This document shows, piece after piece, positions 6,001 through 31,500 of a stretch of DNA of 52,600 nt. The notes beneath the pieces are model-generated. The model did no database searches. It had not been told where the DNA came from and was given only the letters and a program-made list of their open reading frames with translations. Positions within the stretch are counted from its first letter, which is position 1; every line of letters starts with the position of its first letter. The position numbers and the translations under genes were made by a program. The DNA is from a virus (taxonomy: Duplodnaviria > Caudoviricetes): IMG/VR virus record IMGVR_UViG_3300017783_000031, positions 1 to 52,600 of that record. The stretch is one strand, 5' to 3'.

Positions 6001-7093
6001 AATTAATTTTGATGAATGGAGCCATATAGCTTTTACTTCGGATGGAACTACTTTAAAAGTATACACAAACGGAATTTTAAGCAATAGCTACACCACAAGT
6101 AGTTTTGTTAGTTCTATAAACGAAATATGTAGCACAACTTCAAATAGACAGTTTAAAGGGAAAATAGACCAAGTAAGAATATTTAACAAGCCAATTTTAC
6201 CCTCAGAAGGTGCAACATTATATAATGAAACAAAAAGCACCGTAGATACACTACAAGTTTTAGGGGATGCATCGTGTATAGCAACATATAGATTAAACGG
6301 AGATGCTTTAGATTTATCAGGTAACTATAATGGCACTGAAAGCAATATTGATTATGTAAAAGGCGGCCACTTTACTTATAACATTTACGAAAACAAAGCT
6401 AGAACATTTAGCCACAAAGCATCTGATCTAAATTTAAATACTCATCCTATTGTACCCGATGCTATTAGTGTCAATAGAGACAACGGTTTTAGTATTATAA
6501 AATGGAAAGGAAATGGTGTTGGTGAAAGTAATACAGAGGGTGCTTTAGTGTCGCATGGGCTAGGTAGTATTCCGGATATTGTAATTTTAAAAGATTTAGA
6601 TGCTAGTAGTGATTGGATGGTGCATTCGTATAATTTATGGACAGATCCAACTGATTATTATTTAAAATTAAACCAAAATATTTCAATAACAAACGGAACT
6701 GGATATCCATATAGAGTAACATCAACAGGATTTGCTAATGCATATAGAAATACACTTAATAATAATTATATAGCTTATGCTTGGCACTCTGTTCCTGGTT
6801 TTAGTAAAATAGGTTCTTTTACAGGAACGGGTTCAAGCGGTAATAAAATTTTAACAGGATTTGAACCAGAGTTTTTAATGATAAAAGGAACATCAATTAA
6901 TGGTAATTGGACAATTTTTGACAATCAAAGATCAAATGAAACTCTTTGGGCTAATTTAAATAATAGTTATGGTAGTGTTTCGACTACTAATAATTTTTCA
7001 TTTAATTCCGATGGATTCACAAGCCTTGGAGGTGGTAGTTCTACTAACAGTAATAATCACAATTATATATATATGGCCTTTGCACACAGATAA
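71..7093 (+). CDS. Giant tail fibre/adhesin-like virion protein with multiple LamG/concanavalin-A-like domains, a SPRY-like domain and duplicated PDxxWIKxR beta-repeat blocks (2340 aa)
   Basis: Repeated LamG motifs (WHHIVLT..YVDG, FNGxIDxVRIY), SGKWYVEF..GDIIGFAIDL SPRY-like motif, two blocks each ending YMAFA; Gly/Ser/Thr/Asn rich. Confidence 0.8.
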   Translation: MPIQNTGSDIRLRGNAGDSVTDINEEINGNSTDTNVSLGTLNTTAFTNVSDGSVITGRAMSEMQGYSTFTSALPQTEATGALGESLLLDGSNYTFHRIPSLTSNRTTFTYSGWYKFNNLDSGNIIIMESGPTSGNGYISLRIDNTNNNIYGLVGNNPGNPWLVRSPELFFDTSSWFHFVFAVDTTKDFINDRLRVYVNGIEIKFTYTANTIAKNQTFFINDGSSRICVGRTARTDQYAQFGQTVVADAKFIDGTQLRPDSFGELIQGIWIPKAFNTPSTDQPVTRGLIADYQFNGNANDTSGTATTYNGTVSNTEFITNNYGSIKIAGSSDKVDFSGYSHSMFNNATVSVSTWVNAQALASPSQAGSHIFMGQGNWQIQITNSSTYGIYFTKYHGSSGGNNNTNWARYVPGGGVKTGVWYHIVVVDDTPNGNGIKLYVDGNLVAQNTAYTQVDSNNWVAGIANYPGRTGGNYVIGETKVFTSALTASEVLQEHNATKYKYAYGLNGFWLPLNNTSIGSIDSSSNLKLHLDASNNSSYGGSGTTWSDLTSNSNNGTISGANFLSTTNGGVFEFDGNNDSVQVNTLAGITNYNFTMSIWVNTTDTLAYYVSFRDPIYITFGSVYSSNSVGMGIYDGTNQYFINNTAMQSIDDGKWHHVVLTHNGTNLVGYIDGNIIATVSTGTTTHHSGGTNHNRIGMRGDGVSTTYDFNGKVAQFRIYNKALTAQEVITNYRATQGNYEQVSLVDISGNANSFTSTNIDYTDHIKDEPLDNYATLNPLEPYADQFSFSEGNTKFTSATTGYHTSSANMALTSGKWYVEFKYLGSSAYGSARIGPSILGDITGLNSYGGTTTNSWMWGSNGAIYNNNANIASSSVTATTGDIIGFAIDLNNYRWFISKNGSFLYSHDPATPSTGIDISGFTDYFIGFHAYTTTDIGKFYFGAEGFNYTPPTGFKALSTKNLPAPSINPDGATPDKPSNHFKAVIYQGNGGKQGETYGFKDGSRAAVFNGSSSKIDLGNNSSNNSSTISVSLWFKTTGHSGTATLINNGGSNSNETGYFLGLNSNGTVKFEAGGGTVNSSVNYADDIWHHIVLTLNSGTYNIYVDGNTTPVLTGSGAFTSTATRPTWIGQFSYALSNIEFFNGLIDDVRIYSDVLTTTEVGYLYNDDTTNIANISNQVAYYDMESDSNNNTLQTITSVATYQLNSDGGTTNNVPDTTTNYNGTASNITYASGKFDNAAVLNGSSSVITLPSISQLPSNSNNTNNFTFSCWVKSTTTRLNNGGGSNPIFQNNVGSYQFIGFGGNDNGNFPAGRLFYYTYGGSGQHNSWIITPNTYDNGQWHHLVVTDKYNSGSDNRTRTIYVDGTQIVQDTVDKNFLNGTATNHTLGDATGTGNRHAGMDLDQVRLFNVPLGQEGVTALYNETTTSAQSASIQGSLDYDGADTNVTYTQDKPYGNINVGFAPDFVWIKNRNGNNSHILQDSVRGSGSSKTLHSDLTAYEGQYGSYGNISSFDANGFSPNAGSNGAHNTNLLNNVYVAWNWKAGGTAVSNTDGDITATVSANPDAGFSIIKWDATTTGSDRLGHGLDNKPELVIMKNISNSNRNWFVFTDIIDGSYDYLYLNLTNNKANSTRNVPTAEVFDQGNLGGVVAGDDCIAYCFHSVDGFSKIGSYTGNGSSDGPFVHTGFKPAWVMIKSYSSGNAGDWMIVDNAREVKNTLDLRLDANSSDDEATDTIMDFYSNGFKLKTASAAKNRNGYGFLYMAFAEEPVKYSNGVATLGDGNEFIQDTNYPEDNFSTNIYTGDSVDGRLIKTGFSPDLTWIKARNQPFYHFIFDSLRIDPNDDYHIMSSDAGAEGTVGESNQRLKEFRSDGFILGGGGQLSNINKASNNYVAWSWKAAGHEYKSASFNGSNSKINLSTISNIKTYSFWINPNSSGNPTYARRIFGNIGGTSYTYSIVLDPGFGAAGQGRMVYYENTSARYGDIINFDEWSHIAFTSDGTTLKVYTNGILSNSYTTSSFVSSINEICSTTSNRQFKGKIDQVRIFNKPILPSEGATLYNETKSTVDTLQVLGDASCIATYRLNGDALDLSGNYNGTESNIDYVKGGHFTYNIYENKARTFSHKASDLNLNTHPIVPDAISVNRDNGFSIIKWKGNGVGESNTEGALVSHGLGSIPDIVILKDLDASSDWMVHSYNLWTDPTDYYLKLNQNISITNGTGYPYRVTSTGFANAYRNTLNNNYIAYAWHSVPGFSKIGSFTGTGSSGNKILTGFEPEFLMIKGTSINGNWTIFDNQRSNETLWANLNNSYGSVSTTNNFSFNSDGFTSLGGGSSTNSNNHNYIYMAFAHR

Positions 7094-10609: not shown

Positions 10610-13033
10610 ATGGCAGAAACATTATTAAAAAGCTCATTCCCTAGTCAGATAGCCTCTGATGTGGAGAAGGCAACCGAAGAATATGGCTTAAAAGTTGCGC
10701 GTGCTATTGAACACGAGTGGTTTAAAAGAGATAGCGGAGCTACAAGGTTTTACTCTAATAGGGATGAGTATCATCGACTGCGTTTATACGCAAGAGGAGA
10801 ACAATCAGTAAAAAAGTATAAAGATGAATTGTCTATTAATGGTGATTTATCTTATCTTAATTTAGACTGGAAACCCGTGCCAATTATTCCAAAGTTTGTT
10901 GATATAGTTGTTAATGGTATGTCTGATAGACTTTATGATATTAAAGCCTTTTCACAAGACCCATCATCTGTAAAGCAAAGAACAGATTATGTTGAATCTG
11001 TTTTAGCAGATATGCAATCAAAAGAAATATCTGATCAAATTCAGCAGCAGCTCGGAATAAATGTGTATAGCAACGATAGAGATAATTTACCTGAAAACGA
11101 AGATGAACTGGCTCTGCACATGCAACTTGAATATAAACAATCTATTGAAATTGCAGAAGAGCAGGCTATAAATTCTATATTTAATTCTAATAATTACGAT
11201 TTAACACAAAGACGTGTTAATTATGATTTAACTGTTATAGGGGTTGGTTGTGTTAAAAATGAATTTACAAATTCAGAAGGGATAAAATTAAAATATGTAG
11301 ATCCTGCTGATTTGGTATATTCTTACACTCATTCCCCATATTTTGACGATATATATTACGTAGGTGAAGTAAAGTCTGTAACTATTAATGAACTAAAACA
11401 ACAGTTTCCTCATTTAACAGACGAAAATTTAAGTAATTTATCAAAGCAAGGAGCTCAAACTTCAGCTTCACACAATAGATATATAAACGAAGATTCTGTA
11501 TTAGATGCAAATACAATACAAATATTATATTTTAATTATAAAACATATAATAATGAAGTATTTAAAATAAAGAAAACAGCGTCAGGAGCTGACAAAGCTA
11601 TTCCTAAAAATGATCAGTTTAATCCACCTAAAGATAATAGAGCTTTATTCAGCAAAGAATCAAGATCAATTGAAGTTGTATATGATGGGGCTTTCGTTTT
11701 AGGAACACAACAATTACTTAAATGGGAAATAGCTAAAAACATGGTTAGACCTAAAAGCGATACTACAAAGGTAATGTTAAATTATAACGTTGTAGCTCCC
11801 CGTATATATAAAGGTCGTATTGAATCGTTAGTTAGTAGAATTACAGGTTTTGCTGATATGATACAATTAACGCATTTAAAGCTGCAACAGGTGATGGCAA
11901 GAATGATACCTGATGGAGTTTATTTAGATGCTGATGGTTTGGCTGAAATTGATTTAGGTAACGGAACAAACTATAATCCTCAAGAGGCGTTAAACATGTT
12001 TTTTCAAACAGGATCTGTTATTGGTAGGTCTATGACGCAAGAGGGGGATATGAACCCCGGGCGAATGCCAATTCAAGAACTTACTTCAAATGGTGGTAAT
12101 AATAAAATAGGTTCACTTATTAATACATATAATTATTATTTACAAATGATAAGAGATGTTACTGGCCTTAACGAGGCTCGGGATGGCTCTTTACCAGATA
12201 AAAATGCATTAGTTGGTGTACAAAAACTTGCTGCTGCTAATTCAAATACAGCTACAAGGCATATATTACAATCTAGTTTATATTTAGCCGCAAAAACAGC
12301 GGAATCAGTTAGTCTAAGAATATCAGACGTATTAGAATACTCGCCTACAAGAGATGCTTTTATATCTAGTATTGGTAGATTTAATGTGGCAACATTAGAG
12401 GATATCAAAAACATGCATCTACATGACTTTGGTATATTTATTGAACTGTCACCTGATGAAGAAGAAAAACAAATGCTTGAAAATAATATTCAACAAGCTT
12501 TGGCCAAAGATCAAGTTTATTTAGAAGATGCTATTGATATTAGGGAAATAAAAAATATTAAACTAGCTAATCAACTTTTAAAAGTTAGAAGAAGAAAAAA
12601 ATTAGAACAAGATCAAGCAAGGCAACAGCAAAATATTGAAGCACAAGCAAACGCAAATTCCCAGAACACTCAGGTTGCTGCGGAAATGGAAATTAAAAAG
12701 AATCAATCTATTACACAACAGAAAGCTGAGCTTGCGCAGATTGAAGCAGATCTTGAAATGCAAAAAATGCAAAATGAAAAAGAGCTCAAGAAAGAACTTA
12801 TGCGATTTGAGTTTGATCTTAATATTGCATTGAAAGATAAAGAGGGTGAAGTATATACTAATAGAGAGCAGTATAAAGAAGATCGCAAAGACGAAAGAAC
12901 CAGAATACAAGCTTCGCAACAATCTAAACTTATTGAACAAAGAAAAGATAAAAAAGGAGAACAAGAGTTCGAGTCAGCTGGTAATGACACCATGGGGAGC
13001 GGCTTTAACTTAGAATCATTTGAACCCCGTTAA
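10610..13033 (+). CDS. Portal protein
   Basis: 807 aa following TerL; PIIPKFVDIVVNG, IRDVTGLNEARDG and C-terminal coiled coil typical of Bacteroidota podovirus/crAss-like portals. Confidence 0.85.
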   Translation: MAETLLKSSFPSQIASDVEKATEEYGLKVARAIEHEWFKRDSGATRFYSNRDEYHRLRLYARGEQSVKKYKDELSINGDLSYLNLDWKPVPIIPKFVDIVVNGMSDRLYDIKAFSQDPSSVKQRTDYVESVLADMQSKEISDQIQQQLGINVYSNDRDNLPENEDELALHMQLEYKQSIEIAEEQAINSIFNSNNYDLTQRRVNYDLTVIGVGCVKNEFTNSEGIKLKYVDPADLVYSYTHSPYFDDIYYVGEVKSVTINELKQQFPHLTDENLSNLSKQGAQTSASHNRYINEDSVLDANTIQILYFNYKTYNNEVFKIKKTASGADKAIPKNDQFNPPKDNRALFSKESRSIEVVYDGAFVLGTQQLLKWEIAKNMVRPKSDTTKVMLNYNVVAPRIYKGRIESLVSRITGFADMIQLTHLKLQQVMARMIPDGVYLDADGLAEIDLGNGTNYNPQEALNMFFQTGSVIGRSMTQEGDMNPGRMPIQELTSNGGNNKIGSLINTYNYYLQMIRDVTGLNEARDGSLPDKNALVGVQKLAAANSNTATRHILQSSLYLAAKTAESVSLRISDVLEYSPTRDAFISSIGRFNVATLEDIKNMHLHDFGIFIELSPDEEEKQMLENNIQQALAKDQVYLEDAIDIREIKNIKLANQLLKVRRRKKLEQDQARQQQNIEAQANANSQNTQVAAEMEIKKNQSITQQKAELAQIEADLEMQKMQNEKELKKELMRFEFDLNIALKDKEGEVYTNREQYKEDRKDERTRIQASQQSKLIEQRKDKKGEQEFESAGNDTMGSGFNLESFEPR

Positions 13034-28534: not shown

Positions 28535-31500
28535 ATGTTTGAATTAGACGGGAATGAATATACATTAGATCAAGTTCAAGCCGCGGCTTATAAGTCGGGT
28601 ATGATGGTTGATGATTATGTTCAAAAATATAAATTCAAAGAATTGGGAAAGACAACTCCCACATCACCGGGTGCGGATGTGGAGGAAAATGCAGCACCCG
28701 AATTGACCGTTACGGAATCTCCATCGGTAGATATTTCTTTGGAGTTACCTCAAACAGGAACAGTTGATTCAACATTAGTTACTCCTCCACGAAAAAAAAC
28801 ACCGTCTGAATTAAGGATAGATGTTACAAGACAAGCGATGGCAAGAGCTAATCCTATGGCTACCCTTATGCCTGATTTTATGATACCTATATTAGCTGAT
28901 TGGACCGCTATGACAGCAGAATTAGGGGCAGGGGTTGTAGATACTGCTGAAATATTATATGAATTGGGATTAGCTGGAATAAGTGATAAAACTTTTGATA
29001 GAATATCTCGTGAACAAAGAATAGATATGTCAGAAGTTTACGAGGGCGTGGAAGCACTTAGAAATATTAGAGAAAAAAAATATGATGAACAAGGCAATGA
29101 GTTAGATGCTATTGGTTTGTGGCAATCAGGTCGCAAAGGTGAGTCAGCACAACAATTTATTAGCGAAGCGATTGGTTCGTTACCTGCTACTGTTTTAACT
29201 TATATGATGCCAGGATATGGCTCAGCTGTAATAGGGCTTGGTACATTTGGTTCTGAATTTGAAAGGAATTTAAAAGAACGACCTGAAGAAACAGCAGGAT
29301 TGATGTTGGGTAATGCTGCTTTAAAAGGAGGATCAGAAGCTTTATTTGAATGGTTAGGGGGATATACCTTTAAAACATTAACTAGAGCAGCTACAAGAGG
29401 GGTAACGGAAAAAGTTATTAAAGATATGACACGTACCGGGGTTCCTTATGCTCTTCGTAAAATACTAGGCATTGGTGCACAAGCTGGGGTTGAAGCTCTT
29501 ACAGAATCAGCAACAGGGGTTACACAATTAGCGGCTGATGAAATGTTTTTTGATGACGAAATAGAAGCTGCGCAATATTGGAGAACAGCTATTCATAGCG
29601 GGGTAGTTGGTGGATTAATGGGTGGTGGTATTACAGCTGGAACTATAGGAACGCAAGTAGCGTTGACTGGCGATAGAAAAAAAATAGCGATGTCAATAAT
29701 TGCACCAAAAAAGTGGAGGCAAGAGCAATTACAAATTGGTATCGAGATTGATAGAGCAACTAAGGATTATGAAAATGCTCCTGATCGGAAAAAAGCATAT
29801 TTTAAAAATAAAATAGAAGTATTAGAACAACGCCAACAAGGGAGGGCTGATAGATTATCTAAAGTTTGGGATGGTTTAACTAGAGCAGAAAAAATAGAAT
29901 ATGCGAGATTAATAGATGAAACTAATTCTCAATTAGATATTATAGGCAATGTTAAATATACTAACCAAGCCCAAAAAGAAGCGCAAGTACTTTTAGATAG
30001 CGCTTATACAGAAATGGGAGCTATATTAGGTAAAGATAATATAGACATAGAACAAGAGCAAGCGTTGTCAAGAATAATTAAAAGTGGAGTTAGTATAGCA
30101 GAAGCGGTTGGAGTTGCAAAAAAAGTTTTAAAAGATATAAATATAGAAAATGTTTCTAATGAAGTATTTCAAGAAGTATCAAAAGCAATAACTGGTAAAA
30201 AAAGTAAATCAGATGCTCTATTTTTTGATGGTAATAATATATATATAAATAGAGATATTTCAGCAGCTACAGAACAAACAAATGTATTGGGACACGAACT
30301 ATTACATTATGTTATGGCTAAAAATTTTAATGTTAGCGATGAATCTTTAGGCCCATTAGTAAATAGCTTTAAAGATTATTTAAAACAAACTCAGCCGAAG
30401 ATATTAGAAAGAATAGAACAAAGACTTAAAAAAGCTTATGAGGGTGAAGCACCTTTGGAAGAATATTTAAATATTTTTTCAGATATTATAGCTAGAGAAA
30501 AAATAATAGTTGATGAAAGCATTACTGATAAAATAAAAAATTCAGCAACTCGTCTTTTAAGTAGTTTCGGATTTGGTTCGGTTAAGTTAGAAACAGGAAA
30601 AGATGTTTTTAATTTTTTAAGAAACTATACTAAAAATGTTAATAATCTAAAGTTTAAGCAACTTGGCGTTGACATTAAGTCTAGTAAAATAGGTAATGAA
30701 ATTAAAGAAGACGTTGAAAGATTTTCTAAGTCTGGAGCTTCAGATAAAGTACAAGAAATATATGAAGCCCAAGGCGCTGCAAATGCTTTTGATATAATTG
30801 CAGAGTTTAAACCTATTGTAGATAAAATTGTAAATAAATATAGAAACGTACCTGGTTTTGAATATCAATTATTAAAAGATGAAATAGAAACAGGGAAACG
30901 CGGTATACTTGACATGATTATGGCATACACGCCTGAAAAAGCCAAGGGTGCACCATTAGCCGCTTATATAAATAAATTTTTACCAAAAAGAGCAATTGAA
31001 GCAGCTAATCGTATATTAGACACGGAATTTACATTAGATGTTACCGAGGCTAAGGGTGTTACAGATACCACTACTGAAGAAAGTATAGATATAACTGAAG
31101 AAGTTAATATAGCCGACGAAATAAAAAGTTTAAGAAAAGAAATTGGTCTACCAGAAGAGCTTATTACAAAAGTTAAAGATGCGGTAATAAAAACATTTGG
31201 TACAAAATTACCAAACCCTCAAGACCCTAAGTTTAGAGCGGAGTTACAAAAAAGGTTTAGAACAGAGCTTAAAAAACCAATGGCAAAATTTGTTGGTAGA
31301 CAAGAAGCATACGAATCTTTTTTACGTAATAATTTTAAATCTATATATGATAAACTACCTCAGTCAATATTAAATAAAAGATTTAAAGATTTTATTGAAC
31401 CTGTTGTTGATGAAAATGGAAAACAATTACGTGAAAAAACGGCCGAGGGTAATAAAATATTTACTAAGAAAAAAATTACGCCTGCTGAATTTATAAAATA

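Follow-up and report, generated by a model that had tools for sequence, protein, structure and literature searches.

A probable programmed -1 frameshift cassette near the start of a giant phage gene

A giant gene of an uncultured marine tailed phage very probably directs the synthesis of a second, small protein of 77 residues beside its 2066-residue product, by means of a programmed -1 ribosomal frameshift cassette whose slip site is at 28645-28651. Coordinates refer to a 52,600-nucleotide (nt) stretch of DNA, hereafter the window, that spans positions 1 to 52,600 of IMGVR_UViG_3300017783_000031, a 52.6 kb IMG/VR-type whole virus record with an estimated completeness of 83%. The giant gene runs from 28535 (ATG) to 34735 on the plus strand and, according to the list of open reading frames (ORFs) and their translation, is the last gene of the structural module. 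A first-pass annotation, made from the letters of the window, had proposed that a -1 frameshift about 39 codons into this gene yields a small product that shares the N-terminus of the giant protein, and this core reading is supported by comparative conservation. Comparison among relatives shows that the cassette, its RNA structure and the -1 peptide are under selection; the slipping itself, and its rate, I infer from these sequences.

The mechanism envisaged is the following. A fraction of the ribosomes engaged on the giant gene would slip back one base at G_GGA_AAG (codons 38-39), tRNA-Lys re-pairing from AAG to AAA and tRNA-Gly from GGA to GGG, while a stem-loop lying 4 nt downstream, probably closed as an H-type pseudoknot, would pause the ribosome. 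Shifted ribosomes would then read 38 codons of the -1 frame and terminate at 28765-67. The first 39 residues of the resulting product would form an acidic folded mini-domain common to the giant protein, and the last 38 a basic tail. More speculatively, the shared N-domain could take both proteins to the same partner in virion assembly or DNA delivery, with the tail as the small form's own binding surface; how much small protein is made per giant protein would then be determined by frameshifting.

The -1 reading frame and its conservation

Direct reading of the window places the slippery heptamer G_GGA_AAG at 28645-28651 of the plus strand, in X_XXY_YYZ phase, the codons concerned being TTG (codon 37, 28643-45), GGA (codon 38, 28646-48) and AAG (codon 39, 28649-51). 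The in-phase heptamer that the first-pass annotation had seen over codons 37-39 is thus borne out, and translation likewise returns the -1 frame, the stop at 28765-67 and the product length that it had given. After the slip, the -1 frame (28651..28767, plus strand) comprises 38 codons and a TGA stop (28765-67), and encodes a Cys-rich loop followed by RYGISIGRYFFGV, the whole peptide being DNSHITGCGCGGKCSTRIDRYGISIGRYFFGVTSNRNS. Added to the 39 residues read before the slip, these 38 residues give the predicted product of 77.

Relatives of the giant gene were collected by a search with 18 full-length homologues, which gave 524 relatives in IMG/VR; the 80 best of them were retained. The analysis covers 160 sources, namely a first set of 84 and three further sets. 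A profile of the tail (the -1 part of the product) matched once per source, on the strand of the gene, in 70 of the 84 sources of the first set; the 14 others divide into 6 that lack the 5' end of the gene and 8 in which it is present. All sets together, the -1 tail was found in 129 of the 160 sources, in 115 distinct nucleotide versions, and none of the 17 loci (15 + 2) retrieved through N-domain similarity alone has a tail. In all 115 versions the frame of the tail lies one base behind that of the long ORF, at about 25-97 codons from the ORF start. The ORFs that carry the cassette are complete and at least 1800 residues long in 66 cases, run off the locus in 41, and are complete but shorter in 8. 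Where the gene start could be located, the same kind of -1 peptide is present even at loci whose 0-frame peptide has diverged beyond recognition. Among cultured phages no usable match to the tail was obtained: the 38-residue sequence, searched with tblastn against 50,697 phage records, returned only two chance-level rows from Synechococcus phages (E = 4).

The pattern of variation tells which of the two overlapping frames is constrained. Over the 31 well-occupied columns of the overlap, entropy at codon positions 1, 2 and 3 of the -1 frame is 0.893, 0.798 and 1.269; the same bases read in the 0 frame give 0.798, 1.269 and 0.893, so that the most variable base falls on 0-frame position 2. A control block taken from the C-terminal domain displays the normal pattern (0.517, 0.324 and 1.041 at positions 1, 2 and 3). 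Mean pairwise peptide identity computed from the same bases (1953 pairs) is 49.7% in the -1 frame versus 33.3% in the 0 frame. Since the second position of 0-frame codons varies most and -1 identity is the higher of the two, the -1 frame is the selected one. The 0 frame encodes over these bases only a low-complexity Thr/Pro/Ala/Glu linker; the tail is therefore overprinted at a place where the giant protein tolerates change.

These data bear on the idea that no second protein exists and that conservation of the -1 frame is a side effect of constraints on the RNA structure and on the 0 frame. The region is indeed GC-rich and structured, and the 0-frame peptide (GKTTPTSPGADVEE.AAPE) is partly conserved among closer relatives. 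Such constraints, however, account neither for the excess of -1 over 0-frame identity nor for the variability of 0-frame position 2. Furthermore, the best-conserved -1 residues (RYG.x.G.WFFG) are encoded downstream of the RNA structure in class A, one of the structure classes described below, and exactly this stretch is open in the -1 frame in 115 of 115 versions. A side effect of this kind is hence highly improbable.

Slip site and downstream RNA structure

The distinct versions of the cassette differ at the slip site in an instructive way. GGGAAAG is found in 56 of them, GGAAAAG in 19, AGTAAAG in 12, AGCAAAG in 10 and another NNNAAAG in 6; N_NNA_AAG is thus kept in 103 of the 115, the remaining 12 having GGATTTT, AACTTTT, GGGAAAT or GGGAAAA. 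From this tally, the constant element is therefore the A-site part, A_AAG (or T_TTT). The automatic choice of the slip site is probably wrong for L152, L153 and L156, in which TGTAAAG was selected and GGAAAAG lies upstream, which leaves the figure of 103 unaffected. In these AT-rich genes, AAG accounts for only 17.8% of the codons for Lys and GGA for 28.5% of those for Gly, while G occupies only 10.5% of third positions. According to Atkins et al. (PMC5009743), Z_ZZN is the minimal -1 site, G_GGA_AAG is listed as highly shift-prone in Escherichia coli, N_CGA_AAG sites are cited for Bacillus cdd and IS1222, and a single tRNA-Lys reads both AAA and AAG in about half of the known bacteria.

Downstream of the heptamer, a stem search identified, after a spacer of 4 nt (28652-28655), a stem-loop S1 on the plus strand. 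Its 5' arm, CTCC(C)ACATC (28656-65, with C 28660 bulged), pairs with the 3' arm GATGTGGAG (28676-84) over 9 base pairs (bp) and encloses a loop of 10 nt (28666-75). A second stem, S2, would close an H-type pseudoknot: CGGGTGC (28668-74), within the S1 loop, can pair with GCACCCG (28694-700) on the same strand over 7 bp, with a duplex energy of -15.5 kcal/mol, leaving 2 nt in L1, 1 nt in L2 and 9 nt in L3. Both pairings, at 28656-84 and 28668-700, had been pointed out in the first-pass annotation and are borne out by the stem search. The G+C content of 28652-28700 is 59%, against 32% for the window, and the stem-2 hairpin considered by itself has z = -3.0 relative to dinucleotide shuffles.

A downstream hairpin is a near-constant companion of the slip site. 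It comprises 6-13 bp and begins 2-7 nt past the slip site in 111 of the 115 versions (spacers of 6 nt in 60, 5 nt in 19, 4 nt in 13, 3 nt in 10, 7 nt in 8 and 2 nt in one), the 4 others having none. The best hairpin beginning 2-9 nt past the conserved sites has a mean energy of -11.95 kcal/mol and reaches -10 kcal/mol or lower in 80% of cases (n = 115), whereas 1545 other in-phase NNNAAAG sites of the same ORFs give a mean of -0.85 kcal/mol and attain that level in 0.6% of cases. At least four sequence classes keep S1 while using different bases. Across classes, the S1 arms pair with their cognate partners at -12.2 kcal/mol versus -5.7 kcal/mol with non-cognate ones, and the cognate partner beats 90% of the other-class partners in 56 of 59 comparisons. 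S1 is 100% paired in class C. In the class A alignment (19 sequences), S1 is 94.7% paired, S2 95.5% and the two together 95.1%, while registers slid along the alignment give 34-52%; three pairs are doubly changed, with a covariation score of 0.185 versus 0.096 after shuffling (0/500). Stem 1 can therefore be regarded as established by comparison.

As for stem 2, its 5' arm is invariably located toward the 3' side of the S1 loop, with 1-2 nt separating it from the 3' arm of S1, while its sequence changes together with that of its partner from class to class: GGGTGC/GCACCC, GGGTGT/ACACCC, GGATGC/GCATCC, GGATCC/GGATCC, GGTTCC/GGAATC, CAACTGC/GCAGTTG, GACTGT/ACAGTC and GGCTGC/GCAGCC. In class A, a single sequence (L071) has both members of one S2 pair replaced, with A-U in place of G-C. 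Contigs from RNA libraries (two libraries, one study) share with L001 the changes A28696G, which turns a U-A pair of stem 2 into U-G and keeps the pairing, and G28705A. On balance, the structure is probably a true H-type pseudoknot. The pseudoknot of the first-pass annotation thus stands in part: pairing and covariation in relatives uphold stem 1, and stem 2 is supported less strongly. That annotation had also named the heptamer, compensatory stem changes and the -1 peptide as what to look for in homologues, and slip motif, structure and peptide are all conserved in relatives.

Several points weigh against the frameshift reading. The window taken alone is weak evidence, since 169 in-phase X_XXY_YYZ heptamers, 11 with AAAG as their last four letters, occur in its ORFs of at least 100 residues, and since single-sequence folding compared with dinucleotide shuffles gives z-scores of only -1.1 for the stem-1 stretch and -0.9 for a 51-nt stretch. 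The spacer of 4 nt is at the short end of the family range. The P-site match is poor in many relatives (A_GTA_AAG, A_GCA_AAG), which would need slipping on A_AAG alone, and A_AAG is less slippery in hosts that have a tRNA-Lys with a CUU anticodon. Eight relatives with an intact 5' end have neither tail nor cassette (L063, L064, L066, L067, L049, L075, L078 and L083), and gp21 of Flavobacterium phage elemoA (L084), searched in every frame, has none either; these cases show that a gene of this kind can do without the cassette. The RNA-library contigs hide rare variants and may derive from DNA in the library. Finally, S2 is less discriminating than S1: the duplex between the loop and the downstream arm averages -12.0 kcal/mol, versus -7.9 kcal/mol for shuffles and -9.0 kcal/mol for other-class partners, a clear advantage of the cognate partner is seen in no more than 36 of 59 comparisons, and in class C two registers are required, with 83.3% pairing in one of them.

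With regard to the first of these points, 6 of the 169 in-phase heptamers are followed by a hairpin of -8 kcal/mol or lower, and among those six, the heptamer at 28645 opens onto the longest -1 frame (38 codons versus 0-16). Two other heptamers of the window have downstream hairpins of about -8.5 kcal/mol: AAAAAAG at 10810-10816, in the portal gene, where the -1 frame stops after 1 codon, and TTTAAAT at 6955-6961, where it stops after 0 codons.

The figures for S2 are those on which a narrower alternative is built, namely that frameshifting is real and S1 alone is the stimulator, S2 being unformed or irrelevant and the pseudoknot nonexistent. Most of the statistical signal is in S1, the 3' arm of S2 lies in strongly conserved codons (YGI/YGF, or Ser-Thr-Arg) that could mimic pairing, and plain stem-loops are described at bacterial sites such as dnaX by Atkins et al. 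(PMC5009743). The constant position of the S2 5' arm, the concerted change of the two S2 arms between classes and the G-C to A-U double change in class A nevertheless favor pairing, and a stimulator made of S1 alone appears rather unlikely.

Two other routes to the -1 frame can be considered together: initiation within it, the -1 ORF being then an independent overlapping gene, and transcriptional slippage. Overprinted genes with internal starts exist in phages. In the present family, however, the -1 frame extends from stop to stop over only 33-56 codons and begins a mean of 6.3 codons upstream of the slip site, and that upstream stretch contains an ATG in 1 of 63 cases and a GTG or TTG in 0 of 63. 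Transcriptional slippage in bacteria is described by Atkins et al. (PMC5009743) on runs of about 9 A or T, whereas the runs here are only G3 and A3. The RNA-library contigs cross the slip site without any inserted or deleted base, with the proviso that contigs could hide rare forms. The joint conservation of a slip motif and a downstream structure fits a ribosomal mechanism, and either of the two other routes is highly improbable.

One last group of sequences has N-domain and tail in a single frame. The tail profile, run against 1.84 billion proteins, identified 17 small ORFs of this type (P0026-P0042, 54-131 residues). When clustered by exact sequence, 15 are singletons present on one contig each, P0026 is found on two contigs, and P0034 clusters with P0043 (89 residues). 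The loci nearest to P0035 have the ordinary -1 layout, and P0035 itself seems to be short of about 47 nt between N-domain and tail. In P0036 and P0042, the single frame runs on beyond the tail. These 17 ORFs, known from protein sequences alone, may be real indel variants or assembly errors, and for that reason they are not counted as support.

The predicted small protein and the giant gene

The small protein is predicted to consist of two parts of opposite charge. Across relatives, the N-part has 26-97 residues (median 43; the gene start is missing from one locus) and is acidic (median net charge -4), while the tail has 23-48 residues (median 33) and is basic (median net charge +4). The median length of the product as a whole is 77 residues. 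In the window, the shared N-terminal part (codons 1-39, 28535..28651, plus strand) is a type I mini-domain (MFELxGxxYTLxQVQxAA..DDY) followed by Leu-Gly-Lys. At least four unrelated types of N-domain, covering the first 30-60 residues, are found directly upstream of the cassette (window 28535-28630, L004-L160). The three others read MNELExIVQRMIDAGEPEENI (type II), ..YxVDGxxYxVxP..FLxKFPNA (type III) and a tandem GxYTKSFEDFxxQF repeat (type IV), and the types are swapped between otherwise related genes. Because at least four N-domain types precede the same cassette, the small protein is best described as an exchangeable N-domain joined to a constant tail. Some of the relatives devoid of the cassette retain a type II or type III N-domain. 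The distant homologues P0015 and P0016 combine a type II N-domain with a subsequent 0-frame segment, CxxC...CxxC, resembling a zinc ribbon; the placing of a Cys-rich element behind the N-domain may be a recurrent pattern.

AlphaFold2 predicts that the type I N-domain, modeled in the in-frame relative P0037, folds into two short strands and two helices (residues 1-40, block-mean predicted local distance difference test score, pLDDT, of 84-92). The mixed N-fragment/tail alignments A7 and A8 are imperfect, and since A7 was the one used for the P0037 fold, the low confidence of the tail in that model is possibly in part an artefact. From 62 aligned tails, AlphaFold2 predicts a beta-hairpin over tail residues 17-36 (28699..28758, plus strand), with strands at 17-25 and 28-36, a mean pLDDT of 63.6 and a value of 85 over residues 21-30. 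The aromatic, beta-like tail of the first-pass annotation is in keeping with this model, the predicted hairpin being the most constant element of the tail. The tail motif is a Cys-rich loop followed by RYG.x.G.WFFG; in the 62 tails, Gly22 and Gly26 are invariant, and Cys8, Tyr21, Phe29 and Gly31 are present in at least 90%. The number of Cys residues per tail among the 115 versions is 3 in 62, 4 in 31, 2 in 16, none in 4, 1 in one and 5 in one. The first-pass annotation had proposed a metal-binding isoform. Four metal ligands at fixed spacing are not conserved, a single Cys column being near invariant in the 62 tails, and with anything from 0 to 5 Cys per tail the family is not characterized by a fixed metal site.

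Similarity searches gave the small protein no known relatives. The N-part, the tail and the in-frame relatives, compared with Pfam, PHROGs and PDB sequences, returned nothing above the cut-off, and in particular no zinc-binding family of Pfam; a search of the ESM Atlas provided no usable match, and Foldseek found no PDB match to the P0037 model at E <= 0.001.

The constancy of the tail matters for another interpretation, in which frameshifting chiefly throttles synthesis of the giant protein and the small product is a functionless by-product. Each ribosome that shifts to -1 at codon 39 is lost to a 6.2-kb gene, few copies of a giant virion protein are needed per phage, and the eight relatives and elemoA manage without the cassette. 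Yet purifying selection would not maintain, in a by-product, a peptide of 23-48 residues that varies at the third positions of its own frame. Moreover, the tail stops at a constant place just past the hairpin motif, when a stop directly after the slip site, as in dnaX, would suffice for throttling. This interpretation is accordingly improbable, and a small protein with a role of its own is preferred.

A more ambitious proposal, which I put forward tentatively and consider somewhat less than an even bet, is that the trans-frame product defines a new family of small phage proteins built from two parts, and that the giant protein requires it as a partner in assembly or DNA delivery, the pseudoknot setting the ratio between the two. 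It would combine an acidic mini-domain acting as an address with a basic Cys-loop and an aromatic beta-hairpin, the tail being overprinted on the linker of the giant protein. Loaded through its N-domain at the same site as the giant protein, it could serve, for instance, as a plug or an adaptor, or else as a piece that binds membranes or DNA.

The giant gene itself belongs to a module whose order is terminase, portal, capsid-like protein and onward, and is one of three giant genes in the record. Its homologues in related contigs encode 1878-2948 residues. Judged by the terminase, for which 87 records were matched, the nearest cultured relatives are podophages of Flavobacterium, Cellulophaga, Tenacibaculum and Maribacter; the closest named isolates are the Flavobacterium 'elemo' phages (45.7% identity), and one uncultured record reaches 62.9%. 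In Flavobacterium phage elemoA, the syntenic slot of the module is occupied by gp21, a 'structural protein' of 3694 residues, and about 150 residues of the family profile could be matched to it (hhalign probability 95.6%, E 1.3e-8). Because of this synteny and of the match to gp21, the gene can be taken to encode a giant virion-module protein; that this protein has a role in ejection, as the first-pass annotation had it, is suggested solely by its position, and the same annotation's term polyprotein is likewise only a suggestion. The Gly-rich residues 228-377 (window ~29216-29665) are the sole part with detectable homology to elemoA gp21. An HExxH motif (GHELLHY, with HELLH at window 30293-30307) is conserved across the family of giant genes. 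No family of Pfam or PHROGs, and no PDB sequence above the cut-off, was matched by the giant protein, and neither its first 400 nor its last 711 residues gave a usable match with tblastn against the 50,697 phage records. An ARAGORN scan of positions 1-52600 detected no tRNA or tmRNA gene.

Known frameshift systems and significance

By its predicted mechanism, this is a classical heptamer-plus-structure cassette, whose nearest counterparts are copA/CopA(Z) and dnaX with respect to logic, and G/GT and the capsid-gene frameshifts with respect to setting. The slip heptamer of lambda G/GT is G_GGA_AAG, the same as here, and in both systems a -1 frameshift within a phage structural module yields, or would yield, a pair of proteins that share their N-terminus and are made at a fixed ratio. 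The differences are several. The frameshift product is the longer one in lambda and a short one here; the lambda genes are flanked by those for the tail tube and the tape measure, in long-tailed phages, unlike the giant gene, which is the last of a podovirus-like module; and lambda G/GT is not known to have a strong downstream structure, in contrast to the conserved stem-loop or pseudoknot of the present family. With Pfam and PHROGs, neither the giant protein nor the N-part, the tail or the in-frame relatives displayed similarity to tail assembly chaperones of the gpG/gpT type. The cassette falls outside all of these families; for the lambda G/GT type, gene position, product direction and sequence membership all disagree. 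The heptamer G_GGA_AAG is also listed as a g-t shift site in a haloarchaeal virus by Atkins et al. (PMC5009743).

In E. coli copA, as predicted here, the slip occurs early in a long ORF and the short product corresponds to the N-terminal domain of the long protein. The 2017 work of Meydan and colleagues is said to describe in copA a slippery C_CCA_AAG and a downstream pseudoknot. CopA(Z) ends almost directly after the slip, whereas the product predicted here continues into a conserved tail, 23-48 residues long, for which a separate fold is predicted; the genes also differ in nature (a transporter gene versus a virion gene) and have no sequence relationship. T7 gene 10A/10B and the major head protein of Lactobacillus phage A2 resemble the present case in that a -1 frameshift in a virion gene supplies a second virion component. 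In T7, the -1 frameshift in gene 10A/10B gives a second capsid component, and in phage A2 a frameshift is reported to take place in the major head protein gene. These capsid-gene frameshifts are near the 3' end and lengthen the protein, whereas the one predicted here is at the 5' end and would replace about 98% of the protein by a short tail. As in dnaX (tau/gamma), an A_AAG-type site is followed by a structure, and termination in the -1 frame yields the shorter product, according to Atkins et al. (PMC5009743); unlike dnaX, the shift would occur at about codon 39 of 2066, and the -1 frame encodes a conserved peptide. The literature searched does not describe the cassette, supplements such as the predicted frameshifted genes of the PRFect paper being outside that search.

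Gene callers overlook the small protein in every genome, and yet it would constitute a conserved family in abundant uncultured marine phages. The cassette provides a clear case of overprinting, in which a folded, selected peptide would be encoded over a disordered linker. Its natural variation, with several slip-site variants, some of which have a poor P-site match, and at least four structure classes, should be useful for studies of recoding. The nearest cultured relatives of these phages infect Flavobacteriia, whose phylum largely does without Shine-Dalgarno-led translation, and little work on frameshifting is known from that phylum. The exchangeable N-domains common to the giant and small proteins would offer a handle on how giant virion proteins are addressed. 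If the proposal of a new two-part protein family holds, the cassette would join G/GT as the second frameshift of wide occurrence in the structural modules of tailed phages, one that would be specific to a large clade of marine Bacteroidota-type podoviruses.

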